From an uncultured Candidatus Saccharibacteria bacterium (lineage in GTDB: Bacteria; Patescibacteriota; Dojkabacteria; SC72), in assembly GCA_964408765.1 (NCBI GenBank), contig CAYPAR010000001.1, positions 1 through 33,554 of the forward strand: a stretch of DNA of 33,554 bases, in the 5' to 3' direction. Under the pieces are notes generated by a model. The model was not told the DNA's origin and searched no databases. It saw nothing but the letters and a program-made list of their open reading frames with translations. Of the stretch, positions 1-21,696 are shown one piece after another (position 1 is the first letter of the stretch; each line of letters starts with the position of its first letter). A program made the translations under genes and the position numbers.

Positions 1-159
1 ATATATTTTCTGAGGTGTTGTATATACGGTTGTACTCTGATCTGTGAGGGATGTGTCAAACTTTTGAGTTTCTGTTGAATACGAAGAAAATGCAATTACT
101 GGTAATGGAATCAGCAAAATGAAAAGTGTAAGTAATACTATACCGTTAAAATTTTTCAT
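1..159 (-). CDS. Partial CDS (first 53 codons; continues beyond the left window edge): exported protein of unknown function
   Basis: Not in the ORF track because it is below the length cut-off. The reverse complement of 159..1 reads ATG AAA AAT TTT ... = MKNFNGIVLLTLFILLIPLPVIAFSSYSTETQKFDTSLTDQSTTVYTTPQKIY and stays open to the edge. It has a hydrophobic core followed by VIA|F, which is signal-peptide-like. It lies on the same strand, 42 nt downstream of the preceding gene. Confidence 0.45.
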   Translation of the reverse strand, partial: MKNFNGIVLLTLFILLIPLPVIAFSSYSTETQKFDTSLTDQSTTVYTTPQKIY

Positions 160-201
160 AGAAAGATTGTACCAAGAAATTGTACCTAACACAAAATAAT
201 G

Positions 202-1200
202 CTAATCAGGGGGAGGAGTTAAGAAATTTGTATTTTTTGTAATATACTGTCCATCTATTGCTAGAATGTACAGTTGTGTTTCTGTAATATAGGTTGTTTT
301 TTCCCAATCTTCATACACTGCATTACCATCTACTATATAGATAGGAAAAATATACCCATATGTGAAATCTTGAAAAGTGTAAGAACTTGATAGTTGCTTT
401 GCATCAAAAGTATTTAACTTAACGGAAACCCTTAAATGTGAACCTTTGCTAGCATACTTTTTATCCCAAGTAAGATTTTTAATTATAAACTTTTTAGTAC
501 TAACTATCTGTCTACTATCAATAGGAGAATAAAGAGAATAGAAATTAACACTAGATGGATTGTATAGAAATACTGAAAACTCCGTAATATTGCCTTCCGA
601 AGATACGTTAATAATAAAAGAGTATGATTCTAAATATATAGAGCCAAATGAGAAATCTTCTAAGTTATATTTCCCTCGATATGACAAGCCACCATCAGAA
701 AGTTTTTTAGTAATGATTTTATCCTTTGTTGCTTTATACCCAACAAGCTTCTCTACAAAGGAAATAACATCCTCCAAATTATTTATAGGATGAGAATTTA
801 GTTGATCGAGGACTTTATATATCAATACTCCTGTATCTTTGTTGTATGTTATCATTGAATTAGATGATTTCCAAAATATTGCAAGATCGGAACTAGATAC
901 CTCTTCTGCTTGTTCATCTAGTTTCTTTACAATATTTAATATATCTTCTTTGTATGGGAGAATCGTAAATACTTTAACTTTCTGATTCTCAGATAAGAGA
1001 TATGAATTTCTTGGTAAAGACCAGTTAAAACTATTCAAATTGTCCTGAAATGGAGTTGGTAAAGGTTTGTTCTCGGCTAATTCTACCTTTTGATTCTTAT
1101 TAAAATTAACAACAAGAATCCAAATTAGTAGTCCAATAACTAACCCAATACCTAATCCAATCAAAATATATTTTTTATATGTTTTTAAAAATTTTTTCAT
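202..1200 (-). CDS. N-terminally membrane-anchored (bitopic) protein, unknown function, Cys-free ectodomain of about 300 aa
   Basis: 332-aa ORF with an ATG start. Residues about 11-33 (YILIGLGIGLVIGLLIWILVVNF) form a single TM helix after a basic N-terminus. The rest is a mixed alpha/beta-looking soluble region. Only 11 nt separate it from the upstream gene, so it is an operon member. Confidence 0.75.
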   Translation of the reverse strand: MKKFLKTYKKYILIGLGIGLVIGLLIWILVVNFNKNQKVELAENKPLPTPFQDNLNSFNWSLPRNSYLLSENQKVKVFTILPYKEDILNIVKKLDEQAEEVSSSDLAIFWKSSNSMITYNKDTGVLIYKVLDQLNSHPINNLEDVISFVEKLVGYKATKDKIITKKLSDGGLSYRGKYNLEDFSFGSIYLESYSFIINVSSEGNITEFSVFLYNPSSVNFYSLYSPIDSRQIVSTKKFIIKNLTWDKKYASKGSHLRVSVKLNTFDAKQLSSSYTFQDFTYGYIFPIYIVDGNAVYEDWEKTTYITETQLYILAIDGQYITKNTNFLTPPPD

Positions 1201-1211
1201 TTTTAATTACC

Positions 1212-3776
1212 TCACATTCCATTATTTCTAATAGCAGAACTTACTATATCCCAACATAAAGATCCTGATTTACCAAGTGCCACATCTTCTAAATCTTGGT
1301 CTGTACAGCCTTGAGAAAGAAAATAATCCCTAGTTTCAGTTGCTTTGACTGCAGGCCCACCATTAACAGAGAAAGTATAACCACCCGCATTTCCAGAGAG
1401 ATAATCTGCTCCCCATTCTCCTATATGGAAGTTATAGTTACCATTTTGAATTATATGAATGACTTCATGTCTAAACAATCGAGACAAATATTCAGAAGAT
1501 GCTCCTATAACCTTATCTGCCTTGCAATATACTGGGACACCACTTATACACCACCAACCACCTTCTTTATACCTAGGATCAGAAGGATCTATCAACTCTA
1601 GATATGTACTTATTCCCATAGAAGCAGCTACCTGGTCAAAAATCTCTTGAACCGTTCCATCAAAAATTAAAATTCCTCCTATGAGATCTCCTTCTCCAAA
1701 AGAAGAACCCCCATACGGTACTTTGAAATCTGTTTCTCCTAAAACAACTTCACCAGGAGCTACATGTGCATACTGATTCTTCATAACAACACTAAGAACA
1801 GAGGGTACCATAACAATAGTAGCAATAATCCCAACAATCGTAAGAACAAAGACTGTAAGAGATGTCTTTATAACTGGTTTTGCAATCTTTACCCCTATAT
1901 TTATAGCTATACTAGCTGCAACATCTACCAAAAAACCAACTACAGCTCCAGCTCCTGCTGTAGTTACACCTAAGGCAGCTATAACAGCCGTCTTAATTCC
2001 TTCAAGTAAAACTTTAAACCCACCAACACGCATCCATTTCCCGATAAGCTTCTTGGCAGGACCATCTTTTATCATTAGTAACAACCGTTTTCCTATCTGT
2101 TGCCTTAGTTTCTGCATAGAACCTCCTAATCGATCAGTAATCAACTTAGTAAACCTGCTCTTAGCCCTACCAAGCGCACCAAATCTAAATGCCATCTTCT
2201 GTAATTTCTCGTTTTTTTTCACAAACTTGAGTAATTTATCAAATTTCCCTTGGTCTAGAACATTTGTGAAAGAATGTAGATATGCTTCACCATTCTCACC
2301 AAATAATTGATCTAGATTTACCCTATCAAGCCAGCCTTCTTTCTCCATCAATTTTAAGAATTTTTCCTGTTGCTTAAATGCTCTATATGCAAAACCCTCT
2401 CCTGTTGCTAATGTCTTAATCCAAACACTTGGTGTATTGTAATACGCTTCGGTCATCATTCTGTAATATTCATTCATGAACTTACTACCTTTACCTGTAA
2501 CAACTCTAGGTATTTTGAATTTAGGTATTTCATCCCTATCTGTCTGAATAAATCTACCTATACCCAACACCTCTTTTTCCTGAACTGGCAAGAACTTTCC
2601 TTCAAATATAGTATTCTTTCTTTTGTCAAAGAAATCACCTGACAATATTGCAGGAAGTAACTGACCACCCATTGTATATTCCCAAGCAGAAGATGTAGAT
2701 GATAAAATACCATCCCATTTTCCAAGTTTTTGAGCTACTTTCTGAGCATTAAACATCCTTAATTCTTTGTTTGTGTCAGATATCTTTGATCTAAGATTTT
2801 TAATAAGATTTTTGTCAGGATTACTAGATTTTAACAGTGTAGATAAGTCTTCTTTGTATTGTTTTAATTCATCTTTTTTCTTTTCTAAATACCTATCCCT
2901 GAGATTCCTCTGCGCAAAAAGATCAACACCTTTCTGTGCACTCTTGTATTTATCTGCAAGCTCAGTATCACCAGCAGCTCTTGCTCTAGCCTCTTTTGTA
3001 GCCATGTTATGACTTTCAAATACTGGATAAAGTGTTTGGTAGTTGTTATCAGAGACATTATCTAATACTGAAGAAATCTTACTGTCGTCTGATCCTTGCC
3101 TGACCTCATTGTCATATGCCCTAAAAGCCTCCTGCAATTTCTTGTATACTTCAGCTCCCCTTTCATTCCCCAGAGACCTTTTAAGAGAACTCTCAGAAAT
3201 ATTTCTGTAGTTTCCAAATTCTCCCTTTACAACTTTTTCTAAATAATCTCTATTTTTTGCCCATGCTCCTAACTTTTCTTCTAGTCTTTTAGAACTTTTA
3301 TCAAGGAAAACATCTTCCCCACCCATGTTAAACAATGCATTTTGAGTTTCTAAATCTAAGCCATATTTTTTTGCCCAAGTAGCAGCAACAACTCCAGATA
3401 ATCGTTCTCCAGCCCAAGCCATTTTTCCAAGTTTCCTATTTATCTCTAACCTCTCAAATTGTTTATCAACAAAAGATAGATCATTATTTAGGACTCCCTT
3501 GATATCTAGGAGTCTGAACTTTATTTGTTCTTCTGGACTAAGATTAACAATTGCTACCTCAGTATTAACTACATCATTGAAAGCATCAACAGCTGTTTTG
3601 TTTACAAATTGTCCAGGATTTTCAAGGACTGCGGCTAATGCATCAATATACTCACTGGTACCATCAAAACCTGTAATTTTTACAGGTTTCCTTTTATCAG
3701 GAGGTTTTTGAGATTCTGTGAATATAAAGTCAAAAACCGACCCGAGAGCATCTTCATATTGCTTCTGTTTTGGCAT
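1212..3776 (-). CDS. Large membrane protein: a soluble, coiled-coil-rich N-terminal region of about 595 aa, a hydrophobic Gly/Ala-rich TM block, and a C-terminal HExxH (HEVIHIIQ) metallopeptidase-like domain
   Basis: 854-aa ORF with an ATG start and TGA stop. There is no signal peptide. The hydrophobic block spans aa 596-666 (AVIAALGVTTAGAGAVVGFLVDVAASIAINIGV ... TSLTVFVLTIVGIIATIVMVPSVLSVVM; nt 1779-1991). The motif HEVIH lies at aa 770-774 (nt 1455-1469, verified as CATGAAGTCATTCAT on the minus strand), followed by IIQ and GEWGAD. All 4 Cys of the protein lie in the last 190 aa. Confidence 0.8.
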   Translation of the reverse strand: MPKQKQYEDALGSVFDFIFTESQKPPDKRKPVKITGFDGTSEYIDALAAVLENPGQFVNKTAVDAFNDVVNTEVAIVNLSPEEQIKFRLLDIKGVLNNDLSFVDKQFERLEINRKLGKMAWAGERLSGVVAATWAKKYGLDLETQNALFNMGGEDVFLDKSSKRLEEKLGAWAKNRDYLEKVVKGEFGNYRNISESSLKRSLGNERGAEVYKKLQEAFRAYDNEVRQGSDDSKISSVLDNVSDNNYQTLYPVFESHNMATKEARARAAGDTELADKYKSAQKGVDLFAQRNLRDRYLEKKKDELKQYKEDLSTLLKSSNPDKNLIKNLRSKISDTNKELRMFNAQKVAQKLGKWDGILSSTSSAWEYTMGGQLLPAILSGDFFDKRKNTIFEGKFLPVQEKEVLGIGRFIQTDRDEIPKFKIPRVVTGKGSKFMNEYYRMMTEAYYNTPSVWIKTLATGEGFAYRAFKQQEKFLKLMEKEGWLDRVNLDQLFGENGEAYLHSFTNVLDQGKFDKLLKFVKKNEKLQKMAFRFGALGRAKSRFTKLITDRLGGSMQKLRQQIGKRLLLMIKDGPAKKLIGKWMRVGGFKVLLEGIKTAVIAALGVTTAGAGAVVGFLVDVAASIAINIGVKIAKPVIKTSLTVFVLTIVGIIATIVMVPSVLSVVMKNQYAHVAPGEVVLGETDFKVPYGGSSFGEGDLIGGILIFDGTVQEIFDQVAASMGISTYLELIDPSDPRYKEGGWWCISGVPVYCKADKVIGASSEYLSRLFRHEVIHIIQNGNYNFHIGEWGADYLSGNAGGYTFSVNGGPAVKATETRDYFLSQGCTDQDLEDVALGKSGSLCWDIVSSAIRNNGM

Positions 3777-3801
3777 TTGACTTAAATATTACAATTAATT
3801 A

Positions 3802-5139
3802 CTACTTCATCATTCCTCCAAGCAAAGGAATTTTGGCCAAATTCTCTTTAATTATTTTTCCTGTTTCTGTTTTAGGTACGGTTGCTGGAATTATGGCTTT
3901 TACTATCTCGGGTGCTGTTGCAGCTACATAAATAGCAACAATCTTACCAACATTAATTACCAACCATGGTACTAGTGTAGAAGTACTAGTACTAGTACCA
4001 ACAAGTGTTTCTGGGAATACCAATCTAATTCCTCTACCCTCAAATGCATATGGAAGATTCACTATTGCAAAAGCTACTGGGAAAATTAGAACATTTCTAG
4101 CTACAGACTTAAAAGTATTAAGCATTGAAGCTTCATTACCAGGAAGAGCACCAAAGAGAATTGTAAAAGGTGCTACTATTAAATTAACTAAGATACCAAA
4201 ATATGCTTTTAATAATACAATCCAAAGCTTGATTGCTCCGATAAGCACGATAGCTACAATCACGAGTGCAAATATACCCAAAATAACACCAACAGGGCCC
4301 AATTTAACAAAACCAGCTATCATCAGACCTAATCCTAAACCCCCACTAATACCAGTTGGAGGAGACTTTAGGATAAAATTACCTAACAGTGTCAACGGAT
4401 TATGAACCTCTATCGCAGAAATAGGATTTTCTGGATAGAGTAAGTTGGCAATGATATTTCTAATCACTCCACCGATATCTATAATTATCCCTATAATCGC
4501 AAAGCTAAATGTGACAAGAAGAAGTGATAAAACTAATTTCGGAATAGAGTTCCCTAATGTTACCATAACTTGCCCCCCTATCTTGTTTCTAAACATAATC
4601 ATAAAGCCAATAACTATCATAATCACCACATAGAATACATATGCGATATTCCTTGTATGAGACCATAGATCTACAATACGAGTCTCTTCTAAATCATCAA
4701 AACCACTAGCATATACGGAGTTGGCCTGTTTATATCCAGGAACCCACTCCTCTGCAAGGTGGGCAACAACATCTATCTTCGGTTGATTATCAAATGTAGC
4801 TACTAATCCTTGATCAACTCTTTCAACTAAACCCATCTTCAATTCATCTGGAAGTTCTTCTGAGTTCTCAAAACATGTTGGACACATACCTTGTAGCAAA
4901 CTCATAGAATGCCCTAAGATTGCTTTGGCTGATCCTTTCTCAACATTCTGAGATTTAGTCTCATTTTGATTAATGGTATCTGATACCGTTGCAGCATCTT
5001 CATAAACTTTAGTATTATCTATAAGTTTTACTTCTACCTCTTCTCCAAAATCCTCCTGTGCTATTACATTAAAAGGCAAAAACAGGAAAAAGAGGGAAGT
5101 AGCAACAGCTGTAATTGATAAGAATCTAAGTCTTTTCAT
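3802..5139 (-). CDS. Polytopic integral membrane protein (signal peptide plus about 6-7 TM helices) with an exported N-terminal domain carrying a CPTC motif; its topology resembles VirB6/TrbL-type channel proteins (unverified)
   Basis: 445-aa ORF with an ATG start. The signal peptide is MKRLRFLSITAVATSLFFLFLPFNVIA|QE. An acidic exported region of about 135 aa follows, then repeated long hydrophobic segments (IAYVFYVVIMIVIGFMIMF, LVLSLLLVTFSFAIIGIIIDIGG, GLGLMIAGF..GVILGIFALVIVAIVLIGAI, and others). The only two Cys are C86 and C89 (CPTC, nt 4873-4884). Confidence 0.8.
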   Translation of the reverse strand: MKRLRFLSITAVATSLFFLFLPFNVIAQEDFGEEVEVKLIDNTKVYEDAATVSDTINQNETKSQNVEKGSAKAILGHSMSLLQGMCPTCFENSEELPDELKMGLVERVDQGLVATFDNQPKIDVVAHLAEEWVPGYKQANSVYASGFDDLEETRIVDLWSHTRNIAYVFYVVIMIVIGFMIMFRNKIGGQVMVTLGNSIPKLVLSLLLVTFSFAIIGIIIDIGGVIRNIIANLLYPENPISAIEVHNPLTLLGNFILKSPPTGISGGLGLGLMIAGFVKLGPVGVILGIFALVIVAIVLIGAIKLWIVLLKAYFGILVNLIVAPFTILFGALPGNEASMLNTFKSVARNVLIFPVAFAIVNLPYAFEGRGIRLVFPETLVGTSTSTSTLVPWLVINVGKIVAIYVAATAPEIVKAIIPATVPKTETGKIIKENLAKIPLLGGMMK

Positions 5140-5160
5140 TTTTTAATATTAATAATTTAT

Positions 5161-6642
5161 TTAATCGATTTCGTACTTCTTAGCAGATAATTTCATAGAT
5201 TGAACTACAGAATTCCAGTAAAAACCGAAATTTGCAGGAAAATCCCCTTGATTTGGTGCCTTATCTTTCTCTTGTAGATTGAAGTTTGATAGTATAGGGG
5301 ATGCATCCCACAAACACAATACTGGTACATTTCTACCATCTATTCTTAAAGCACACTCTGTTGCTACAAAAAACATAATAGATGTTTTGGGATTACCTGA
5401 CATTTTTAGACCACCAGATTCCGAAGGAGAGAGGGTTTCCCTATATGCTTGTGTCAAAAATGCATTTGCACAAAGTTCCTTTTCACAGTTATCTGGTTCT
5501 CCAAATATTGGAGTCATCTTAATTCCTAAAGATTTAGGATCTACACATTCTCCTGATTTTTCTGTTTTTATAATAGTTTCTCCAGTTTCAGGATTTACAC
5601 TTTGAACTTCCTCCCCAACTGTACACCTCTTCCATTGAGAAAATCCGAATGTTGCCATAAATCGCCCACTAATAATCGCTAACACATTTATACAAGATGT
5701 TACAACACCATCCTCATTCTCTATCTTCTTGTAATCCTTACCCTCTACAAGACATTCAGAGTTATCAGATATTACTTTTTCGTCCCCTCCTGGAGCTTGA
5801 GCGCCAAGATATCCACCATATTTTTCATCAGACGCAATATAGTTTGACTTGCCAACATTATAATCAGATATTGCTAGCTTTGGCTCACAAGTCTTTCCAT
5901 AAACTGTACACTCTGGTTGATGAGATCTATCTTCAACTTGGTATTTACCTTCAACATCGTTTAAGTCTTCTACATCTCCTATATTCATCTTAATTTTTCC
6001 TTCAACAACAAAAGGTTTTTTCTCAGTACCAGAAATAGATTCATTAAACTCTATAGCTTCTTGAGGCGATAAGGTTCTTGAAACTATTTCCGGATCAATC
6101 TGTTGTCCATTAGATCTAGTTTCTGGAGAATTCTTTCGTATCTGTTTATTACTATCTATAAATGTATATTGTCCTTTCCATAAAGCTAATGGATAAGTTA
6201 CTTTTGTTATCTCAATCTTAGAGTCTTTACTTACAATAACACCCTGTCCGCTAGATCCAGATTCCTGACCTTCTGAGAAATCAATTGCACCACTACCCTG
6301 TGTAGAGCAAACATACCTTTTTGATGAGAGGAAGTTTGCAGGATCTATTCCCTGACAGTCGGAACCAGAAATACCTAAGACTGATGAATCAGAGGAATCC
6401 AGTAATGTTACAGTTTGTGAATTATCTAATAGAATATAGTTTATAGACGCATTCTCATCTATCACCTCTTCTATAATCTCACCTGTCTGACAATTTGTAC
6501 ATTCTGCTGGTTGAGATACAGGAAGTTGTGGTTCTGTTTTACTAAAATCTATTTTTGAGAAAATATTTACCATCCATAACGAAAAAAGGGAGAGTCCAAT
6601 GAGAAAGAACATAGCTTTTGTATTTATAGGTTTTTTTCTCAT
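5161..6642 (-). CDS. Secreted or N-anchored cysteine-rich protein (14 Cys), unknown function
   Basis: 493-aa ORF. The N-terminal hydrophobic segment is AMFFLIGLSLFSLWMVNIF. I counted 14 Cys by hand, all after the hydrophobic segment. Its ATG overlaps the upstream stop codon in an ATGA arrangement (nt 6639-6642), which implies translational coupling. Confidence 0.8.
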   Translation of the reverse strand: MRKKPINTKAMFFLIGLSLFSLWMVNIFSKIDFSKTEPQLPVSQPAECTNCQTGEIIEEVIDENASINYILLDNSQTVTLLDSSDSSVLGISGSDCQGIDPANFLSSKRYVCSTQGSGAIDFSEGQESGSSGQGVIVSKDSKIEITKVTYPLALWKGQYTFIDSNKQIRKNSPETRSNGQQIDPEIVSRTLSPQEAIEFNESISGTEKKPFVVEGKIKMNIGDVEDLNDVEGKYQVEDRSHQPECTVYGKTCEPKLAISDYNVGKSNYIASDEKYGGYLGAQAPGGDEKVISDNSECLVEGKDYKKIENEDGVVTSCINVLAIISGRFMATFGFSQWKRCTVGEEVQSVNPETGETIIKTEKSGECVDPKSLGIKMTPIFGEPDNCEKELCANAFLTQAYRETLSPSESGGLKMSGNPKTSIMFFVATECALRIDGRNVPVLCLWDASPILSNFNLQEKDKAPNQGDFPANFGFYWNSVVQSMKLSAKKYEID

Positions 6643-8462
6643 AAGTTTCTAGACATTTTACCATTTCCCTTCGTTCTTTTCCTAGAGGAGATATATAGTA
6701 ATACTCCTAATATTACTAGAGAGATAGAGAATAAGATTATACCAACAAGATTATCCATTATACCTGTATTTGGTGTTGTGGTTGTCTCTGTCATAGTAAT
6801 AGCATTTGGGTCATTTGTAATTCCATAATTGCTCAGTTGTGAGATAGATTTGGTAGATTCTGTTGATGGTAATGATTCAAGAGCTATTTTAATATCACGT
6901 TTATCAATACTATCCATACTCTCTTCATGGGTAGATGTTCCAAATGTCGTATATGGTTTAAGAACTAACTTATCCTCTGAGGTATATTCAAAGTATGAAT
7001 CTTTACTGTTAGATCTCATATCTCCGATAGATAATACCCAACCACCTGAATCATCCGCCAAAGAAGAAACCTCATAACTTTCCCCTAAGGTTCCTATTTC
7101 ATCTCCATCCTTTATACTACCGATAACAATAGTTTCTCCATGTTCAGGCATGTTAGTAAATTTCCCAGTTACAGAAACAAAAGGAGGAGCACTGTCGATG
7201 GTATTTAAAGTTGTTACAGGATATTTTCTCTCATTATTATTGTAAGTATCATCTCCAGAGATTATTTCAAAGTAATATTTTGTTTCAGGTTGTAAACGAT
7301 CTACCTTTACAGAATGAAGGTAGAAAGATCCCTTTGGAGATATGCCATCTCTCTGATCATATGCTGTATTGGACAAATTCTCCGCTGAAATTCCATACTT
7401 AACACTTCCTATTTCTTTTTTTTCTGATACCCAAAGTACTGTAAAGCCACTATCTGTTAGATTAGTTACTTTTACACTTTCTGGACCGACATTAGTAGAT
7501 ACTCTACTTATTTCAAGTAATTCCTTCCACTGTAATTGATGTACTATCCTGTATTCTCTATTTGTAAACTCTTCTTCAGGAGTCTTTTCTTCTTCAACAG
7601 GTATTACTGGTACTACCGGTTGAACAGGTACTACTGGGCTTACTGGCGGTGTGGGTTCTTCAGGAGGATTAGTAGCCAAAACCATTAGTTTTGCAGCATC
7701 TGGGATTTTGGGATATATATCTAAGTCTGTACTTAATGTTAACTGATTTGCTTCTTTTAGTGTACCACTACTATCAAAAAGACTAGAATATGTACCTATG
7801 AGTTCGGCTCCACCAATATTACCACCTGTTGCTAATATTGTTATCCCAGTATCATCTTTTACAGTTGCTCTTGATTTATCTGCAATCTTTAATAAAGCTG
7901 AAAGATCTGTAATCCAGGTTTTACTATTACCTAAAGTAGCAGAAACTGGATATGTACTCTTATCACTTAAGAATATATATATTAAAACATCATCTGTTGT
8001 TGCCATTGCTATCTCTCCACTAGCTGGATTTACAGAAGGGAGATCTGCTGATATTGGAGCGGTAGTAAATGTTAAATCTTTGCCTTCACTAGATGAGTAT
8101 TTGGTATTATTTGATTTAAGCTTGAAGTTATATTGTGTATTTGGTTCTAAGTTTTCAACCTCTACATAGTGTGTATATCTTCTATCACTGCCTCTTGCAT
8201 CTCTAATTTCGGATTTCTCTTGATTATTCTCAAGTAGAATTAAAGTACCATATGTTTTGGTATCTGTAGTCCAAGATATTGTGGCCATTGTTGTTGTAAT
8301 ATTGCTTATAACAACATTCTTAGGATCTGTATCTCCAGATGCTTTAGATACTATTTGAACAACCTTATACGCTGCAAATAGAAGAAGAGGCAATCCTATA
8401 ATCAGAATTGCCATTATAATACTCTGTCTTCTTTTTCTTTGAGGTAATTGAGCTATCTTCAT
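6639..8462 (-). CDS. Surface protein with an N-terminal TM/signal anchor, two FN3-like (purple-acid-phosphatase-N-type) modules, a Pro-rich linker, and a C-terminal LPXTG-like sorting signal (TPNTG + TM + basic tail)
   Basis: 607-aa ORF with no Cys at all. The FN3-like signatures are VVISNITTTMATISWTTDT...YTHYVEVENLEPNTQYNFK and VKVTNLTDSGFTVLWVSE...YLHSVKVDRLQPETKYYFE. The linker is NPPEEPTPPVSPVVPVQPVVPVIPVEEE (nt 7572-7670). The C-terminus is TPNTG-IMDNLVGIILFSISLVILGVLLYI-SSRKRTKGNGKMSRNL (nt 6642-6776). Confidence 0.85.
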   Translation of the reverse strand: MKIAQLPQRKRRQSIIMAILIIGLPLLLFAAYKVVQIVSKASGDTDPKNVVISNITTTMATISWTTDTKTYGTLILLENNQEKSEIRDARGSDRRYTHYVEVENLEPNTQYNFKLKSNNTKYSSSEGKDLTFTTAPISADLPSVNPASGEIAMATTDDVLIYIFLSDKSTYPVSATLGNSKTWITDLSALLKIADKSRATVKDDTGITILATGGNIGGAELIGTYSSLFDSSGTLKEANQLTLSTDLDIYPKIPDAAKLMVLATNPPEEPTPPVSPVVPVQPVVPVIPVEEEKTPEEEFTNREYRIVHQLQWKELLEISRVSTNVGPESVKVTNLTDSGFTVLWVSEKKEIGSVKYGISAENLSNTAYDQRDGISPKGSFYLHSVKVDRLQPETKYYFEIISGDDTYNNNERKYPVTTLNTIDSAPPFVSVTGKFTNMPEHGETIVIGSIKDGDEIGTLGESYEVSSLADDSGGWVLSIGDMRSNSKDSYFEYTSEDKLVLKPYTTFGTSTHEESMDSIDKRDIKIALESLPSTESTKSISQLSNYGITNDPNAITMTETTTTPNTGIMDNLVGIILFSISLVILGVLLYISSRKRTKGNGKMSRNL

Positions 8463-8516
8463 TAAGAAATATGATACCTAGAAGAAGGAATTATTACAAT
8501 ACAACAAGATATATTC

Positions 8517-8807
8517 TTACTCTTCCTCTTTACTCTGTTCTCCTGTTAGACCTGATATGAAACCACTTACAGCAGATATTCCAGATCCTATACCTCTGAT
8601 TGGTTTTACTATGCTTTCATTTACTTCTTCTACTGTACCTTTCACTGTAGACATTACAGAGTGAGCATCAGAGGTAATATCTTCTACATTCTTTAATGTT
8701 CTTCTAGAATCTTTTATAAACATACCTAATTCAAATAGTATGAAAGATAATAGAGATGCTAGTATACCAACGACTATCATCCAATATATTGGAGGTATTG
8801 TTTCCAT
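8517..8807 (-). CDS. Small N-terminally anchored membrane protein, DUF948-like (TM helix plus a helical, Gly/Ser-rich tail)
   Basis: 96-aa ORF with an ATG start. It has one TM helix (IYWMIVVGILASLLSFILFELGMFI). This is followed by KDSRRTLKNVEDITSDAHSVMSTVKGTVEEVNESI, which resembles the DUF948 pattern as I remember it. It sits 20 nt downstream of the giant gene. Confidence 0.6.
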   Translation of the reverse strand: METIPPIYWMIVVGILASLLSFILFELGMFIKDSRRTLKNVEDITSDAHSVMSTVKGTVEEVNESIVKPIRGIGSGISAVSGFISGLTGEQSKEEE

Positions 8808-8827
8808 ATGTTTAACTTTAAATTTAA

Positions 8828-11800
8828 TTACTTATCACACTGTCCGTTGTAGTTTCCACCTGGATTCCACCAAAGAGTTTTACAAGATGGATCTTTTGGA
8901 TTAAATTCACTTATTCTTACAAAATATCCATTTAATGGACTTATGGGATAATCTTGTCCATATGATTGTCCATTTATTAACTGATAACCTTGATACATAC
9001 CTCTTGATGTAGGCCACCATGTTACATTGTCTGATTTAAGACCTTCTATAGTATTAATACTTTCTATTAATGTTCTAGCTGTATATGCTGTACTATATCC
9101 ATGTATACCTACTAGGTTCCAACCACGAGAGAAGGCTACGGGAACTGATTTGTCCAATTTAAGCCCAGGAATGGAGATTGTAGTATCTTGTTCAGCTATT
9201 ACTACATAACCTCTCCCAAAAACCAGGTCAAAGACAGTACCTTTAGTTTCCTTTGTATTAAAATCATATGTTGTGCCACCACTCCATTTTCCAGCTTCAA
9301 AATATGATATTGCTGAAACTTTATTCTCTCCCATATTAACTAATTCTAAGAATTCAACAGAGTTTAATTTTGGTTCATTACCTCCCTTCGATGGCATAAA
9401 GCCAAAAGAGATGATATTAATACCACGTTTTAAAGAATACTTTGTTGTTATTGCTGTTTGAGAAGAAAATAGTACTACAGATTTTGGAAGTATCATATCT
9501 TCACTTTCTTTTGGATTATTAGGATCTTGTGGAGCTTGATAACCAGGGACTCCATCGTTATCTTTATAAAAGAAGTAAGATATATCATCCTCACCTATTA
9601 ATGATATTTTACGACCTCCAGCAATTGTAACTTCATACATACCCTCTCCTGGATAGTATAGTACTTGATTTGTTGTTTCCTCCTCTTGAGTATTGTCCTC
9701 TTCATAGGTACTATCATCTGCAAGAGATTTGAACAAAGCTTTATTGAAAACACTTGTTGAACTCTCACTGCTGGGGACCTCAATATTGTAATACTCCATT
9801 TCCTTCAGGAGAGATTCTTCAGCTAAGCATTTTTCCCAATCTTCTATGAATTCTGATGGACAATTGTCTAGACTATATTTATTTGTAGCATCATTATGAC
9901 AACAATACTTACCATTAACAGATGTTTTACCCTTTTTGATAGGAGTACTATTTTCACATACATCTCGGGGACTAGAAGTAGAGAGAGAAACTACAGGAGT
10001 TACCTCCTCATCCTTATCTCCTAAACAATACACTACTTTCAAAGACAAATTACACTTACTAGTAGAAGATGCTTCGCAACTTGTTGAGAAGTTGTATCCT
10101 GCAACAGGGGACGTCTCACTTGCATATGGACAACACTTTAAATTGTTAATATCTTTATGAGATAACTCTCCCGAGACTTCTACAGGAATAATATATTCTT
10201 TTTTAGGACAATTAAGGTAACCTGAGGATGTAGTTCCAACATCTCCTTCTTCATCATATACCCTATAATTTTGTACATACAATGGCAACTTTTCTAGAAA
10301 AGAAGAACAGTGCTTTTTAAATTCATTAGCAGTATCGCTACGCAAACAAACTATTTGATTCTCATTTTGGTTTTTCTTAGTTGAAACAGCTTCTTGGTAT
10401 TCCCCACATCTAGTATCATGATGATATGTATCGCGAAGAAAATTCTCACACTCGAAGGGAGAGGAGAATCGCATAGAACCTAAATATCTTTCAACTGCAC
10501 TCTTTGCCGCAGTACTAACAACAGAAGGAACCGTCTCACACTTTTTTCCAGGTGTAATATAATATTCCTTCGTACATCTATCATCCTCAGGAACACAATC
10601 ACAAAAATCAGAATAATATCCTTTACTCTTATCACACAGGGTCCCTTTTATTGTCTCTCTACTACAAATATTATTTTTCTTATGATAACAATAGACAGTA
10701 TCTTCAGAAGGACATGAAAGAACACCAATTCTACGAGTAGAAGATCCTGGTTCGTAGTATAAAAGCGTACTTTTACTTTCTTCATCGTTTTTACAACCGT
10801 TTTCAAAGTATTCTGCCTCTTTACTAAAAACACAAACTCTCTCTAATCGATTTCCTATAAACACGCTTATTACTTCAAATCCTTTTTGACATTCTTCACT
10901 CATTACCTCTATCTGTGAATTAGCAGCTGGAAGCTTGATATCTCTATACTCTTCACATTGTTCTTTAGTTAAGCATGTTAAGTGACCAGAAGTACAAACA
11001 CCAGATTGGTAATTTGGCAATTCTATACATTCTCTTTTATCTGTGTCATATGTAAATCTTTTCTTAGGAACCATAATCCATTGATCTCCGTCTGCCACTT
11101 TTTCTAAATCTCGATCTCCTGGGCGACTGTATACATTCATACACTCTGGAGGTCTACAATGTTGAACTTTTGGATCTGGTGAAGTATATCCACATACATA
11201 ACCAGTTCCACCTATTCTGTACCTCCAATGACATGTTGCATGTTCATCACACCCAGATGCTGCAAACGGTTCTTTCAATGTTGAAGGAATACATCCTGTA
11301 GTTGAGTTAGAGGTGTTGTTTGGTTGGGTATTTGTTGTTCCAGTATTTGTCGAGTTACCTGTTTGATTTTGACTATTACTATTAGTGTTTGCTGATTTTC
11401 CAACATTTCTTCCTAGAGATTTATTATTGGATTGTTTTGAAGCAGCATTAGTTTTACTAGTTAATTTACTATGTAACCATGACAGAGCTGTATTCTCATC
11501 TGCATCTTCCTCTACCTCCCAATCTTCCTCTCTATTACCCAGTAAAGATAAGGGGAATATATCCTCTTTATACACTAGACTCCTATCAATATTTAATGGT
11601 ATTGCATTATCAACTTGCGGAATAAATTCCAGAGTCAAGCCCTCAATAGATACTGGTTGATTTTGGGCATCCCGTATATTTGCCAAATCTATAGACCACC
11701 CTCCATCGGAGTTGCTTACAGAAGAAAGTAAAGGATAATTATCTACATTTACATCAAAAGATCGTAAGAAAATTATAGAGTCAAAATTCTCTTTCTTTGC

Positions 11801-12445
11801 CATCATTCCAAATTTATCAATATACATATTGTAAGATGTTCCGTATGCAGGGTTAGGTGCTTCCACTTTGGTAATCACTGGCAATGTCTTAGATTTAAAT
11901 TCTGATATAGCTGGCATCTCCCTTTCTGCAAATGTTCCCCCATAACTCTTCCCATAACTAACAACCCCATCACCTACTCTAAAGAAATACTCCTTCTCTG
12001 CATCTAAGTTCTGTACTGTAATATGATGGGTATAGTACTTACCATACTTCCATACCTTAACATCATTACAATTAAAACCACTAGCATCTACTGTAAAATT
12101 AGCATCCTTAGTCTTAACTGCCTTCTTATTAAACTTACTAACACACTCACTCATAGCATCAGAACTATCCCTATCATCTACTGCCTTCTTCTTACCTATC
12201 CATGCTAAAGGTCCAGGAAGAAATGTATCTTTCTCTCCATAGTAAACAATACCAGTCATAGGAGTATCTGTTATCCAAGATACAGTAAATGCACTATCTG
12301 TTACATTAGTAACTCTCACCTTATACGGCTTATACCTAACCCCCATATATACTACATACCCAATATATCCTAAGAGAAATAATCCTGTTAGTAGAAGAAC
12401 TATTTTAGATATAGTTCTTAAGACCTTTACCTGTTGTAAATTCAT
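8828..12445 (-). CDS. Giant exported surface protein: TM/signal anchor, FN3-like module, N/S/T/Q low-complexity linker, Cys-rich core of about 490 aa (36 Cys), acidic linker, and a beta-rich C-terminal domain
   Basis: 1205-aa ORF with an ATG start. The TM helix is at aa 14-34. The FN3-like module is VRVTNVTDSAFTVSWITDTPMTGIVYYGE...YYTHHITVQNLDAEKEYFFRV. The linker at aa 331-384 (nt 11294-11455) reads KTNAASKQSNNKSLGRNVGKSANTNSNSQNQTGNSTNTGTTNTQPNNTSNSTTG. The Cys-rich core is aa 385-873 (nt 9827-11293). Isolated Cys pairs occur at 101/126 and 1188/1203, giving 40 Cys in total by hand count. Confidence 0.9.
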   Translation of the reverse strand: MNLQQVKVLRTISKIVLLLTGLFLLGYIGYVVYMGVRYKPYKVRVTNVTDSAFTVSWITDTPMTGIVYYGEKDTFLPGPLAWIGKKKAVDDRDSSDAMSECVSKFNKKAVKTKDANFTVDASGFNCNDVKVWKYGKYYTHHITVQNLDAEKEYFFRVGDGVVSYGKSYGGTFAEREMPAISEFKSKTLPVITKVEAPNPAYGTSYNMYIDKFGMMAKKENFDSIIFLRSFDVNVDNYPLLSSVSNSDGGWSIDLANIRDAQNQPVSIEGLTLEFIPQVDNAIPLNIDRSLVYKEDIFPLSLLGNREEDWEVEEDADENTALSWLHSKLTSKTNAASKQSNNKSLGRNVGKSANTNSNSQNQTGNSTNTGTTNTQPNNTSNSTTGCIPSTLKEPFAASGCDEHATCHWRYRIGGTGYVCGYTSPDPKVQHCRPPECMNVYSRPGDRDLEKVADGDQWIMVPKKRFTYDTDKRECIELPNYQSGVCTSGHLTCLTKEQCEEYRDIKLPAANSQIEVMSEECQKGFEVISVFIGNRLERVCVFSKEAEYFENGCKNDEESKSTLLYYEPGSSTRRIGVLSCPSEDTVYCYHKKNNICSRETIKGTLCDKSKGYYSDFCDCVPEDDRCTKEYYITPGKKCETVPSVVSTAAKSAVERYLGSMRFSSPFECENFLRDTYHHDTRCGEYQEAVSTKKNQNENQIVCLRSDTANEFKKHCSSFLEKLPLYVQNYRVYDEEGDVGTTSSGYLNCPKKEYIIPVEVSGELSHKDINNLKCCPYASETSPVAGYNFSTSCEASSTSKCNLSLKVVYCLGDKDEEVTPVVSLSTSSPRDVCENSTPIKKGKTSVNGKYCCHNDATNKYSLDNCPSEFIEDWEKCLAEESLLKEMEYYNIEVPSSESSTSVFNKALFKSLADDSTYEEDNTQEEETTNQVLYYPGEGMYEVTIAGGRKISLIGEDDISYFFYKDNDGVPGYQAPQDPNNPKESEDMILPKSVVLFSSQTAITTKYSLKRGINIISFGFMPSKGGNEPKLNSVEFLELVNMGENKVSAISYFEAGKWSGGTTYDFNTKETKGTVFDLVFGRGYVVIAEQDTTISIPGLKLDKSVPVAFSRGWNLVGIHGYSTAYTARTLIESINTIEGLKSDNVTWWPTSRGMYQGYQLINGQSYGQDYPISPLNGYFVRISEFNPKDPSCKTLWWNPGGNYNGQCDK

Positions 12446-12550
12446 ATTAAAAAATATTAACTTTATATACTTATATCAAACAAAAATAACTGTAAGATGT
12501 CAAGTTAGTAAGAAAAAATTTTTCAATATTATTGTAATTTAAATACAAAG

Positions 12551-12572
12551 ATGTTAAACTTATGTTTAACAT
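12551..12572. promoter_or_regulatory. Perfect 9-bp inverted repeat with a 4-nt spacer (ATGTTAAAC-TTAT-GTTTAACAT) in the divergent intergenic region; candidate operator or hairpin
   Basis: Read directly: 12551-12559 is atgttaaac, 12560-12563 is ttat, and 12564-12572 is gtttaacat. It lies between the divergently oriented surface operon (start 12445) and the toxin-antitoxin pair (start 12761). It overlaps the ATG of the small ORF at 12562. Confidence 0.25.
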
Positions 12573-12723
12573 GAGAAAGAGAAATACAAGAAAAAAAGAC
12601 AGAGAGATCTTACAAGGCATAATCGGTATTCTCAAAGTTAAAAACAAAGACAATTTTGACTACAAGAAAGAATACAGAAAACTATTAGAGAAAAAGTATG
12701 GTGAAAAACAAAGTTATAAATAG
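12562..12723 (+). CDS. Possible small ORF (53 aa) carrying a solo copy of the antitoxin C-terminal motif; could be a functional mini-antitoxin or a gene remnant
   Basis: Not in the ORF track because it is under 60 aa. Hand translation gives MFNMRKRNTRKKDREILQGIIGILKVKNKDNFDYKKEYRKLLEKKYGEKQSYK*, with a TAG stop at 12721-12723. The segment DNFDYKKEYRKLLEKKY matches the C-terminus of the next gene (DDFDVDKEYRRLLEQKY) at 12 of 17 positions. Confidence 0.3.
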   Translation: MFNMRKRNTRKKDREILQGIIGILKVKNKDNFDYKKEYRKLLEKKYGEKQSYK

Positions 12724-12760
12724 TAAGAATTTTGTAAAAACTATATGAAATAATTTAAGT

Positions 12761-13222
12761 ATGAAGATAAATATGAAAAACAAAGAATATACAAAAATTA
12801 ATCTAAGAGATTTTCGACATAATTTAACACAGTTAAAGGATTCATTGGTGAGAATATATGAGAAAGGTATTCCCATTGGCTACTACATCCCAGAACAATA
12901 TGAGGTCAAGATAGAGAGCAAACAAGAAATTAGAAGAGAACAGATGAGAAAAGCCTTGCAACTCCCTCTAGGGCATCTTGCCACACAGAAACACAAGAAC
13001 ATTGATGCAAATGAAGAATTTAAGAAAATTATGATTGAGAAATATAAGAAAAGGAATAAGAGGTTGTCAGGAAAAAGACATCGTTCTAACCAGAAAAAAG
13101 AACAGAATGTTAAGGAGTGGGAAGAAATGCTCTCTATGCCAATTGAGAAATCTAAACTACCTGATGATTTTGATGTGGACAAAGAATACAGAAGATTACT
13201 TGAGCAAAAGTATAGAAAATGA
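12761..13222 (+). CDS. Type II antitoxin: Phd/YefM-like N-terminus plus a basic region and two copies of a D-x-D-x-x-KE[YF][RK][RK][LI][LM]xExKY motif
   Basis: 153-aa ORF. The N-terminus KINLRDFRHNLTQLKDSLVRIYEKGIPIGYYIPEQYE fits the Phd/YefM pattern. The stop overlaps the PIN gene start (ATGA at 13219-13222). The true start could be M1 (12761) or M5 (12773). Confidence 0.7.
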   Translation: MKINMKNKEYTKINLRDFRHNLTQLKDSLVRIYEKGIPIGYYIPEQYEVKIESKQEIRREQMRKALQLPLGHLATQKHKNIDANEEFKKIMIEKYKKRNKRLSGKRHRSNQKKEQNVKEWEEMLSMPIEKSKLPDDFDVDKEYRRLLEQKYRK

Positions 13223-13632
13223 AAAAGATATTCTTAGACACAAACATATTAGCGGATTTAGTAGGAGAAAGGACACAATATGATAGTGGTATAGAACAGT
13301 TAATTGATGCTGAGTACTTTCCAATTATTTGTATATCAGCTTTAAGTGTTCCAGTTATACTATATGTTTTCAAGATAAAGATGGATTCTGAAGAATTTTT
13401 AAGATTCTCAGAAATTATATCTACAATGGATATACTACCGCTAACAAGTAAAATTATTATAGATGCCACAAAACATATATCACCTGATTACGAGGATTCA
13501 TTGCAATATCTAACAGCCATAGAAAACAATTGTGATTACATCCTAACAAGAGACAAAAAAGATTTTGAAAAGATAAAGAAGGTAATACCTTCTAAGATTA
13601 AAATAGTAACAAACATATCCCAAATCAAGTAA
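13219..13632 (+). CDS. vapC: PIN-domain ribonuclease toxin (VapC family)
   Basis: 137 aa. It has the IFLDTNIL N-terminal acidic motif, DYEDSLQYLTA, and ILTRDKKDF, which together form the classical PIN acidic set. It has a 4-nt overlap with the upstream antitoxin gene. Confidence 0.85.
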   Translation: MKKIFLDTNILADLVGERTQYDSGIEQLIDAEYFPIICISALSVPVILYVFKIKMDSEEFLRFSEIISTMDILPLTSKIIIDATKHISPDYEDSLQYLTAIENNCDYILTRDKKDFEKIKKVIPSKIKIVTNISQIK

Positions 13633-20271: not shown

Positions 20272-21696
20272 TTACATGACAGGTTTATCCTCATCTGCTT
20301 CAGAAGTACTCTCTATTTTTTTCTTTCCATAGAATTCAATTGCTAACCTCAATTCCTCTTTATCCTGAGCATATTCTTCTAGAGGAATCTTTTGCACCCA
20401 TGCATCATATGCTTGTAATACTGCTGTTGCACCAGCTTTTGTACCCATTGGATGAGAATGTACTCCACCACCCATTGTTGTTATAAAGTCTTGTGTTCCA
20501 ATAACATCTAGGAACTTTCCGATAAGGGTGGGATTTAGACCTCCTGAGATAATAGGAGCAGTCTTTTTAACCATTCTCCAATATCCAAAATCAGAATAGT
20601 CTTCTCCTTCTTGTTCTTTCTTAATTGCATCTACCAAATCTGTATCTTTCTCTGGTATTTCAGACCATATTTGATTAAAGAAATCACCTTTTGAGAAGAG
20701 TCTCAAAGCATGATTTGCAGCCATGATATCTTCTTTTGGAGATCCTGCCATTTTACCAACACCAGCTGTTCCTGTATGAATACCTGATGCTCCTGCTAAT
20801 CTTGCAAATTTTGTTAAGACAGGAACTGTAAAACCAAATGGAGCTTCTTCTCTTGTAAATGCACCATGTCCAGCTCTATGAAAATGTAAGAATACATCTG
20901 GATATCGCCTCCTAACTGTTTGTACCGCCATCCAGCCAGCAGTTATTCCATCTACCAAGAATGCATAGCTATTCGGCTTCATTATTGATTGAATTAAACC
21001 TGCTCTTTCTATCATTGTATCAAAGTTAGCTGAAGAGATATTAAAGGAATGTACTTTTGTTTTACCTGTTTCTTCCTCTACTCTGTCCATTGCTAATCTA
21101 ACATCTCTGACCATGAACTCAAAAGGTGCAAAATCTTGATCTGCTTGGGGTTCATCGTTTTTTACAAAATCACCACCACCTGACCAGAAGTCATAACAAA
21201 CCTCTGCGTATTCTGAAGATGTTAGCCCTATTTTTGGTTTAATGATAGTTCCAAAGATAGGTCTTTTCTCAATACCTAGATACTTTCTCATATCATCTAT
21301 TGTGTAATTTGGACCATCATATTGCACAAGCATCTGAGGAGGAAAATATACATCTAGTAGTTTGCACACCTTTACACTACTCATACCAAAGACATTTCCG
21401 GCAATAAAGGTCATAATATTTTGGACATTTCCACCTCGGTCAAAAATCCTCCATGGATATGCTATCCAAGCAAGGTTTTGTTCTTCATCTACTCTATACA
21501 CTACTGCATTCATACTCTCTGAGAACGAAGTAGATATCTTGATTTTAACATTTGAACCAGTAGAAGACTCTGCTGCTACTTCACTAGCTATGTCTTCAAC
21601 AGTAATACCTTCATCTCCTTTTACCCTAAAAACTGCAAGAAGGTATTGTCCATTGAAAACATCCTGATTACCTATTTGGATGTATTGTTTTTGCAT
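20272..21696 (-). CDS. rbcL: Ribulose-1,5-bisphosphate carboxylase/oxygenase large subunit, form II/III-like (bona fide RuBisCO, not an RLP)
   Basis: 474 aa. The conserved active-site blocks are present: AAESSTGS, AGNVFG, IIKPKIG, GGDFVKNDEPQ (carbamylated Lys = K179), LHFHRAGHG, GIHTGTAGVGKMAG, PIISGGL and MGGGVHSHPMG. The segment between GKMAG and PIISGG is 62 aa long. Confidence 0.93.
   Translation of the reverse strand: MQKQYIQIGNQDVFNGQYLLAVFRVKGDEGITVEDIASEVAAESSTGSNVKIKISTSFSESMNAVVYRVDEEQNLAWIAYPWRIFDRGGNVQNIMTFIAGNVFGMSSVKVCKLLDVYFPPQMLVQYDGPNYTIDDMRKYLGIEKRPIFGTIIKPKIGLTSSEYAEVCYDFWSGGGDFVKNDEPQADQDFAPFEFMVRDVRLAMDRVEEETGKTKVHSFNISSANFDTMIERAGLIQSIMKPNSYAFLVDGITAGWMAVQTVRRRYPDVFLHFHRAGHGAFTREEAPFGFTVPVLTKFARLAGASGIHTGTAGVGKMAGSPKEDIMAANHALRLFSKGDFFNQIWSEIPEKDTDLVDAIKKEQEGEDYSDFGYWRMVKKTAPIISGGLNPTLIGKFLDVIGTQDFITTMGGGVHSHPMGTKAGATAVLQAYDAWVQKIPLEEYAQDKEELRLAIEFYGKKKIESTSEADEDKPVM

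Follow-up and report, generated by a model that had tools for sequence, protein, structure and literature searches.

A conserved eight-gene envelope cluster of Candidatus Dojkabacteria as a candidate host-contact module linked to type IV secretion

Introduction

What does an uncultured bacterium do with a run of genes that encode membrane or exported proteins and nothing else, set beside purely housekeeping genes? The question is raised by a stretch of 33,554 nucleotides (nt) of contig CAYPAR010000001.1 (GenBank assembly GCA_964408765.1, positions 1 to 33,554; this whole stretch is called the window), in which positions 1-12445 hold eight co-directional genes on the minus strand, seven of them complete open reading frames (ORFs) and one cut by the window edge. 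The genes, annotated merely as hypothetical, are named here by the length of their products in amino acids (aa). A sequence-only reading of the window, made without database searches, had proposed that they form an undescribed surface, contact or secretion apparatus of an organism resembling the Patescibacteria of the candidate phyla radiation. The organism was recognised correctly, in that the named homologues are those of Candidatus Dojkabacteria (WS6, Patescibacteria). The word undescribed went too far, since type IV secretion systems (T4SSs) of Patescibacteria have been described (PMC12102498; PMC12857230) and the cluster would be a variant of them.

Patescibacteria T4SSs are related to the monoderm MPF_FATA class, have no relaxases and carry arrays of VirB2-like pilins (PMC12102498; PMC12857230). 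By the account given in PMC12857230, which cites Wang et al. 2023, the system is essential for growth on the host in Ca. Southlakia epibionticum, the one species tested genetically. In a published screen, VirB6 was scarce in some classes, VirB1 was seldom near virB4, VirB8 was rarely found and adhesins were undetected (PMC12102498), and Dojkabacteria genomes were scored VirB4-positive (PMC12102498 Table S1).

We suggest, with somewhat more confidence than doubt, that the cluster is the Dojkabacteria version of the Patescibacteria T4SS envelope and host-contact module, with its ATPase encoded elsewhere. In function the cluster would resemble the Patescibacteria T4SS, to which family context links it. 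It does not qualify as a T4SS, since the defining ATPase is missing from it and the VirB6 membership of its polytopic protein is below threshold.

Results

Genomic context and predicted fold of the 445-aa protein family

The strongest evidence for a link to type IV secretion is the genomic context of the distant relatives of one product, a 445-aa polytopic, VirB6/TrbL-like protein (gene at 3802..5139, minus strand) with a signal peptide, a helical outer domain carrying CPTC and a transmembrane helix bundle. Its family is large: an exhaustive profile search gave 3,892 clusters at the 50% identity level with an E-value (E) <= 1e-3 and 933 at E <= 1e-30, members being ~450-880 aa long. All five of the distant members sampled, which come from other lineages (loci L098, L099, L100, L102 and L103), follow arrays of T4SS_pilin (PF18895) genes, and at each of these loci the pilin array is followed by the gene of a 1178-1450-aa Cys-rich exported protein and then by the 445-family gene. 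The same 10 kb of L100 also encode PrgI/VirB3 (PF12666) and the start of a TraC-like VirB4 (PF26593), together with a 984-aa protein, which has a hydrophobic block in its middle, an M23 domain at the C-terminus and no signal peptide, and a 334-aa bitopic protein. The order VirB6-like protein, hydrolase, ~330-aa bitopic protein is thus common to L100 and the window. This linkage to T4SS genes holds for the relatives, not for the window locus itself.

Other features of the five loci may be recorded here. An ECF (extracytoplasmic function) sigma factor gene belongs to the unit at three of them, 3-8 T4SS_pilin genes lie upstream, and a 1080-1444-aa protein without a signal peptide is encoded on the opposite strand past the 445-family gene; giant M23 proteins (984 to ~1685 aa) are encoded nearby at three of the five.

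The 445-aa protein itself has no Pfam, NCBIfam, PHROG or PDB sequence match. An AlphaFold model, built from 34 homologues (pLDDT, the predicted local distance difference test score, 72), was compared by Foldseek with 350,542 PDB chains; the top four targets were all TrwI/VirB6 of the R388 T4SS stalk, with a probability of 0.97-0.99, and the next target outside the T4SS stalk chains had a probability of 0.12. The TrwI alignments run over ~290 columns, nearly the whole TrwI chain, with a template modelling (TM) score on the target of 0.38-0.48. We also aligned the family by hhalign with a purpose-built VirB6 profile (9 proteobacterial sequences; plasmid R388 record NC_028464). The diverse family alignment A6 gave one local match of 43 columns (E 0.0012, probability 19.7%), which covers the VirB6 segment holding its invariant Trp and Asn; against the single TrwI and PrgH sequences hhalign found nothing. 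The window protein does not match Pfam TrbL/VirB6 (PF04610) even at E <= 10, and TrbC/VirB2 is matched weakly by four of the 76 family members scanned with Pfam. The predicted resemblance to the VirB6/TrwI fold is a specific lead and not a significant match, and VirB6 membership of the protein is below threshold.

A second, paralogous locus beside dnaA

A paralogous module lies beside dnaA/dnaN in the Dojkabacteria genome JBMNHA01 and in a metagenomic contig, the metagenome being one in which the window's species occurs too (L097, 7349-14709; L101, 7479-14501). Its first product is a 233-aa Cys-rich exported protein. Next come two 445-family paralogues, whose outer inserts are Cys-rich, and last a protein of 660-684 aa that starts like the 854-aa protein of the window (YDSVFDFIF versus LGSVFDFIF), with a single transmembrane segment near residue 600 and no hydrolase domain. 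The two families are thus paired at a second place in the genome as well. No ATPase was found at this locus either, the Walker A pattern G....GK[ST] being absent from the six L097 proteins checked. A PilM/FtsA-like gene lies on the other strand at this module.

A predicted membrane-anchored wall hydrolase with a swappable domain

The 854-aa protein (gene at 1212..3776, minus strand) consists of a ~595-aa helical N-terminal part, a transmembrane block (residues 596-667, window 1776-1991), which is its only hydrophobic segment, and an outer domain (residues 675-854, window 1215-1754) that holds all four of its Cys. As the helical part has no signal peptide, it is probably cytoplasmic. Homologues share the N-terminal 80%, that is the helical part without signal peptide and the membrane block, and differ in what follows: among 55 syntenic orthologues the outer domain is Peptidase_M23 in 27, CHAP in two and a domain of HExxHxxQ type in 14, including the window protein, which has no M23 match and in which the motif reads HEVIH (residues 770-774, window 1455..1469, minus strand). 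Because these domains alternate in orthologues, we regard the 854-aa protein as a predicted membrane-anchored wall hydrolase with a swappable catalytic domain; through the M23 and CHAP orthologues the cluster has a dedicated wall hydrolase of VirB1-like kind, its activity being predicted.

The HExxHxxQ and EWGAD motifs are invariant in the 14 orthologues, in which the Cys are conserved as well (alignment A7; the invariant positions include H96, E97, H100, Q103 and E113 in its numbering). This ~180-aa domain reaches no Pfam family at threshold. Its nearest resemblances are to eCIS_core/DUF4157 (PF13699; weak, three of 14, E 0.016), to Peptidase_M1 (one of 14) and to the HExxH active-site helix of clostridial collagenase (M9; weak, E 0.065). 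From its motifs the HExxHxxQ...EWGAD domain is a putative zinc metallopeptidase, and it may be an undescribed wall metallopeptidase domain. PrgK, TraG and CwlT are wall hydrolases of Gram-positive T4SSs, and the 854-aa protein would fill the same role. The role of such enzymes in these systems is also covered by PMC12102498. With the 854-aa family hhalign found no homology to PrgK, and a PDB sequence search with the 854-aa protein returned nothing useful. Its AlphaFold model (pLDDT 59.6, outer domain below 50) gave generic coiled-coil or helical matches in the PDB and mostly tape-measure proteins, at low probability, in the viral library (BFVD).

A hypervariable surface protein

The first gene of the cluster (8828..12445, minus strand) encodes a 1205-aa surface protein with an N-terminal membrane anchor (transmembrane segment 6-36), an FN3/purple-acid-phosphatase-N domain (Pfam Pur_ac_phosph_N, E 1.4e-7), a middle part with 40 Cys and a conserved C-terminus. 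Strain loci (L104-L113), fetched via an identical 96-aa protein, are 93-99.8% identical to the window in DNA on both sides of this gene, and within it similarity stops between ~11443-11918 and ~9310-9671. The variable middle comprises approximately residues 300-950 (window ~9596-11548). Alleles agree to 92-100% over their first 150-300 and last 100-250 residues and to 4-46% over the Cys-rich middle. There are at least five alleles, all with even Cys counts: full-length forms of 1029, 1050, 1089, 1109, 1205 and 1218 aa have 32, 30, 34, 34, 40 and 40 Cys, respectively. Judged from these alignments, the variation is of the kind seen in a contact surface under diversifying selection. Of the 43 species loci in which rsmE is present, 18 give no match to the gene.

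A local diversity-generating retroelement was considered as the source of the variation and is unsupported: long repeats are absent from the surroundings of the variable part, and none of the window proteins scanned with Pfam has a reverse-transcriptase domain. On the low-coverage contig L105 the gene is split into three ORFs.

The remaining envelope proteins

The last gene of the cluster enters the window with its first 53 codons (1..159, minus strand, ATG at 159), the remainder lying beyond the window edge. Its 391-aa product is exported and comprises a PGRP/Amidase_2-like domain, an Ig-like part and SH3b. The family profile matches PGRPs in the PDB (best PGRP-SD 2rkq, E 1.2e-4, residues ~54-133) and, at the C-terminus, autolysin SH3b (E 1e-5); Pfam SH3_3 is matched in the family at up to 1e-11, and two distant orthologues match Amidase_2 weakly. 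By its domains the 391-aa protein is a predicted wall binder. The family consensus reads ITQVTT where the first His ligand is expected, which suggests a non-catalytic binder, the placement of that ligand being inferred and not taken from an alignment.

Between this gene and that of the 854-aa protein lies the gene of a 332-aa bitopic protein (202..1200, minus strand), with an N-terminal anchor (transmembrane segment 8-36) and a ~290-aa outer part. An ORF of 313-363 aa fills this slot in nearly all loci, at sequence identities of 14-32%; the protein evolves fast while its slot is kept. A homologue search with its alignment returned four proteins, and it has no match to a Pfam family, to PDB sequences (searched with the family profile) or to PrgL. 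Its topology, size and gene position suit a candidate for a VirB8-like bitopic protein, a type with an NTF2-like fold.

The three genes between the 1205-aa and 445-aa genes encode a small anchored protein, a second FN3 protein and a Cys-rich exported protein. The 96-aa protein (8517..8807, minus strand; transmembrane segment 2-33 at the N-terminus) belongs to the DUF948 family, with matches in 43 of 44 orthologues, the best at E 1.8e-6; three of the 44 match T4SS_pilin weakly. As a PrgI/VirB3 candidate it was rejected on account of the DUF948 assignment. The 607-aa surface protein (6639..8462, minus strand) has two FN3-like domains (Pfam Pur_ac_phosph_N, 1.7e-16; fn3, 9.8e-13), a linker rich in Pro and, at the C-terminus, a sorting signal of sortase type (6642..6776, minus strand) made up of TPNTG (residues 563-567, window 6762-6776), a transmembrane segment and the basic tail SRKRTKGNGK. 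NCBIfam LPXTG_anchor scores 12.4 bits on it, just under the cut-off of 15.9, and in the long-form clade of the protein the pattern [TI]P[KNQE]TG is conserved, as are the hydrophobic stretch after it and the K/R tail. No sortase gene lies within 10 kb of the cluster. Two forms of the protein occur, a long one (~590-670 aa) with xPxTG and a short one (520-545 aa) that ends in ...LSDYG[IV].. without an anchor, each apparently confined to its own species group. The 493-aa exported protein (5161..6642, minus strand) has 14 Cys and no Pfam, NCBIfam or PHROG match; its syntenic orthologues are 21-86% identical.

Unity and conservation of the cluster

The sequence-only reading had counted nine genes. 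The seven gaps that it listed, which read 20, 54, -4, 21, 25, 11 and 42 nt from the 1205-aa gene downward and which we recover exactly, imply eight; at the gap of -4 the 493-aa gene starts within the last 4 nt of the 607-aa gene. Its figure of eight products in nine with an N-terminal signal or anchor becomes seven in eight by our hydropathy scan (the 1205-, 96-, 607-, 493-, 445-, 332- and 391-aa products), the exception that it had named, the 854-aa protein with its internal block, being the right one. Its Cys counts for the 1205-, 493- and 445-aa proteins (40, 14 and 2) were accurate, to which the 854- and 391-aa proteins add 4 and 2, respectively. As it had stated, no cytoplasmic enzyme, regulator or ATPase is found among the eight products (Pfam, NCBIfam); FN3-type, DUF948 and SH3 matches are the only signals across them in Pfam, NCBIfam and PHROGs, PHROGs giving no meaningful match for any of the eight. 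All eight are membrane or exported proteins. If ~30% of proteins are of that kind, the chance of eight consecutive ones is ~7e-5 (0.3^8, a rough estimate), and such a run beside purely housekeeping genes is not expected by chance.

The one long non-coding gap is the divergent intergenic region of 315 nt 5' of the first gene (12446..12760), which is likely the promoter region of the cluster. It holds three sigma-70-like matches, the best at 12557-12528 (10/12), of a kind no commoner than in shuffled sequence. The same applies to promoter-like and terminator-like sites in general, and the number of intergenic terminator-like sites is zero; the sequence-only reading, too, had seen no terminator-like hairpin. 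Rfam gave no match anywhere in the window. We read the genes as one unit because of their close spacing, the single overlap and what recurs at the second locus and at L100.

The conservation scan, in which each GTDB species was represented by a single genome, found 327 genomes with a gene for a relative of the 445-aa protein, and 80 of the matching loci were read. Conservation of the neighbourhood, which had been proposed as a check, was found in ~60 species-level Dojkabacteria loci that retain the order rsmE (opposite strand), the 1205-aa gene where present, the 96-, 607-, 493-, 445- and 854-aa genes, the ~330-aa slot, the 391-aa gene and uvrD, followed by the G5 gene (opposite strand) and the TPR gene. 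In comparison with L011, an orthologous locus, the envelope genes show 23-55% identity, as against 74% for uvrD and 71% for rsmE, which indicates that the envelope genes evolve much faster than their flanks.

The locus to the left of the window was read from public contigs, many of which encode an identical 332-aa protein. There the 391-aa gene is completed and is followed, 13 nt on and on the same strand, by a uvrD/PcrA helicase gene, beyond which lie a G5 protein gene on the other strand and genes for a TPR protein, EF-G and EF-Tu. The sequence-only reading had proposed a look on this side for a VirB4/VirD4/PilB-type ATPase or a sortase; none is present. The UvrD/PcrA-type helicase gene (L001, 12231-14237) holds the same position in all Dojkabacteria loci read, at 64-95% identity, and may share the cluster transcript; T4SS loci of another Patescibacteria class have been reported beside DNA-recombination genes. 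The 311-aa G5-domain protein encoded past uvrD on the opposite strand (L001, 14239-15174) is kept in position class-wide at 33-100% identity. The G5 domain occurs in wall-associated proteins.

On the right, the toxin-antitoxin pair and housekeeping genes that had been named as the border are a PIN toxin gene with an upstream small ORF and then RsmE/RsmB-type methyltransferase genes (Pfam). The interval between cluster and rsmE (12761-13632) holds a 153-aa ORF and the PIN-domain toxin gene; L013 has an additional AbiEii-type gene pair at the toxin site and L011 has no toxin gene there, so that the right border of the cluster is a small variable island. The rest of the window is housekeeping: beside the PIN toxin it encodes a radical SAM protein, PNPase, the RuBisCO large chain, IF-2, NusA, DnaJ and RpoC. 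The RuBisCO large-chain gene (20272-21696, 474 aa) and the compact IF-2 gene (22184-23737, 517 aa, without a long N-terminal extension), on which the sequence-only reading had based its view of the organism, are both present.

Discussion

We propose that the cluster is an envelope module in which the 445-aa protein would oligomerise in the membrane as a channel or platform. The 854-aa protein, whose type of gene follows a 445-family gene in both Dojkabacteria loci, would dock to it and open the peptidoglycan locally, while the 332-aa and 391-aa proteins would scaffold the wall opening and tie the apparatus to the wall. The FN3 proteins would project outward. The variable head of the 1205-aa protein would make contact with a host or partner cell, standing in for the VirB2-like pilin arrays that may have this function in other Patescibacteria. 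A VirB4 with its gene at another place in the genome would supply the energy.

Several observations weigh against this proposal. Neither the cluster nor the 10 kb around it holds a VirB4, VirD4, VirB3/PrgI or T4SS_pilin gene in any Dojkabacteria locus read (flanks were checked in precomputed Pfam tables, 10 kb on either side, for the Dojkabacteria loci looked up), which agrees with the earlier statement that the window has no VirB4/VirD4-type ATPase; nor does any of the eight proteins match the pilin families PF18895 or PF04956. All statistics that tie the 445-aa protein to VirB6 are below the usual thresholds. The TrwI matches of its model have E 0.06-0.16 and TM 0.27-0.48, and none reaches E <= 0.001; Pfam TrbL/VirB6 is matched weakly and by three of 76 family members (one of 34 relatives at E 2.7e-3 and two of 42 at best 5.4e-4); and hhalign of the narrower alignment A1 with the VirB6 profile finds nothing (probability 0.3%). 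Beyond architecture, the 854-aa and 332-aa proteins have no sequence similarity to PrgK, to PrgL or to the proteins of L100. The whole neighbourhood, housekeeping genes included, is syntenic across the class, and since the housekeeping flanks are equally syntenic, conserved order alone is no proof of functional coupling. Finally, wall hydrolases and wall binders could equally serve the growth of the cell itself.

The systems that come closest are the T4SSs of Patescibacteria, as known from Ca. Southlakia epibionticum ML1 and Ca. Nanosynbacter lyticus TM7x (PMC12102498; PMC12857230). As in those, the organism is monoderm and host-dependent, the VirB6-like polytopic protein has relatives that adjoin VirB2-like pilin arrays and VirB3/VirB4, a peptidase-type wall hydrolase is encoded next to it, and the genes are chromosomal, off mobile elements and without a relaxase. 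In contrast, the window cluster lacks VirB4, VirB3, VirD4 and a pilin array, also within 10 kb, and has FN3, sortase-anchored, hypervariable Cys-rich, DUF948 and PGRP/SH3b proteins instead. The Prg/Pcf system of Enterococcus faecalis plasmid pCF10 (MPF_FATA) offers a parallel in gene order and in its Gram-positive-type envelope, with the LPXTG adhesins PrgB and PrgC, VirB6-like PrgH, the 871-aa hydrolase PrgK and VirB8-like PrgL. However, PrgI (VirB3) and PrgJ (VirB4), which lie between PrgH and PrgK, are missing from the window cluster, whose proteins show no sequence similarity to PrgH, PrgK or PrgL. The hydrolases also differ in build: PrgK has an N-terminal anchor and LytM, SLT and CHAP domains, whereas in the 854-aa protein a long helical stretch at the N-terminus is combined with just one outer domain. 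TrwI/VirB6 of R388 (PDB 7o3v, 8rt9) is the best structural match of the predicted 445-aa model, but at TM < 0.5 and E > 0.05 and with no full-length sequence similarity; moreover, the outer domain of the 445-aa protein is larger (~135 aa), the protein starts with a signal peptide, and no VirB5 partner was recognised.

Of the four parallels drawn by the sequence-only reading, three gain support. The large membrane protein with an outer hydrolase domain is borne out by the M23 or CHAP domains of orthologues, and the wall-anchored adhesin by the TPNTG, transmembrane segment and K/R tail that end the 607-aa protein. The likeness to PrgK/TcpG stands as to architecture and falls as to sequence homology with PrgK. 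For the VirB6/TrbL-like polytopic protein, the four leading TrwI targets and the T4SS pilin context of the relatives speak in its favour, and statistical significance does not.

The main rival, which we think unlikely but take seriously, is an ATPase-independent complex that acts on the wall of the cell itself. Hydrolase, PGRP/SH3b protein and bitopic protein would then remodel or split the wall in growth or division, the polytopic protein would regulate them, and the FN3 proteins would be ordinary wall proteins. Autolysins typically carry M23, CHAP and PGRP/SH3b domains, the cluster is found throughout the class amid housekeeping genes, and it includes no ATPase. EnvC, PcsB and RipC are FtsEX-controlled hydrolases in which a coiled coil is joined to an M23- or CHAP-type domain. 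The 854-aa protein recalls these and CwlO in combining a coiled coil with a lineage-variable M23/CHAP/NlpC/P60-type domain and a polytopic partner. Yet neither an FtsE ATPase nor an FtsX fold was detected at the cluster (Pfam, NCBIfam), and the helical region, which comes before the transmembrane block and has no signal peptide, probably lies within the cell, unlike that of EnvC or PcsB; FtsEX-type control is thus rejected as an assignment and retained as a rival only. A housekeeping wall machine would also not be expected to include a strain-specific hypervariable surface protein, and elsewhere the 445-family adjoins T4SS pilin arrays and VirB4. Less probable again, as a reading of its own, is an organelle for adhesion, in which a VirB6-like platform and a wall hydrolase have been co-opted for assembly and nothing is translocated. 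Adhesin-like proteins do dominate the cluster (FN3-rich, sortase-anchored, Cys-rich, hypervariable), and no ATPase, coupling protein or pilin gene is present in cis. VirB6 of R388 serves as a pilus assembly platform; it forms a stalk complex with VirB5 (titles of 7o3v and 8rt9). The sole point that separates this possibility from the T4SS envelope module is the published VirB4 of Dojkabacteria genomes, and it is a subset of the module reading, not a contradiction of it.

The two other explanations are far weaker. It is very improbable that the genes are not one unit but unrelated envelope genes, adjacent merely through frozen gene order in tiny genomes. The equal synteny of the flanking housekeeping genes would fit such a view, and promoter and terminator consensus scans cannot show an operon; but gaps of -4 to 54 nt with a translational overlap and no intergenic terminator-like site, the recurrence of the 445- and 854-family pairing at the second locus, and the recurrence of the order VirB6-like protein, hydrolase, bitopic protein in an unrelated lineage (L100) argue against it. 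The least probable is a domesticated phage-tail remnant, with the 854-aa protein as a tape-measure-like protein bearing a lysin domain and its neighbours as tail fibre or receptor-binding proteins. Pb2 of phage T5 is a tape-measure protein with long helices, a hydrophobic block and a terminal peptidase domain, a layout that the 854-aa family, with the terminal M23 or CHAP of orthologues, resembles; viral-library Foldseek matches are mostly tape-measure proteins, and the cassette-like variability of the 1205-aa gene is that of receptor-binding proteins. Those viral matches, however, have probabilities <= 0.33 and TM <= 0.16, generic for long helices; none of the eight proteins has a meaningful PHROGs match, there is no capsid, terminase, tube or baseplate gene and no phage gene nearby, and the locus is fixed in the core genome of the whole class. 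We reject this reading because the 854-aa model gave only generic coiled-coil matches and tape-measure matches of low probability.

The T4SS envelope module may be taken a step further, to a possible though doubtful form in which Dojkabacteria run a split, pilus-less T4SS: the module would supply a divergent VirB6, a VirB1-type hydrolase, a protein in the VirB8 position and adhesins, and sortase-anchored FN3 stalks would replace the pilin arrays. Were this true, the module would comprise the parts that published screens missed near virB4 in Patescibacteria, the 445-aa family (~3,900 clusters) would be the main, unannotated VirB6 lineage of the radiation, and the disulfide-rich head at the tip of the FN3 stalks, exchanged like a cassette, would set host range at the level of the strain.

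A large part of bacterial diversity belongs to the Patescibacteria, which are dependent on host cells, and the envelope parts and adhesins of their T4SSs are largely unidentified (PMC12102498). The cluster gives class-wide candidates for these: a large unannotated membrane family tied to T4SS pilin loci, a domain-swapping wall hydrolase and a putative wall-peptidase domain of HExxHxxQ type. The features worth following are this wall domain and the hypervariable 1205-aa protein, which is a natural candidate for a host-specificity determinant and for a marker that would link uncultured strains to their hosts.

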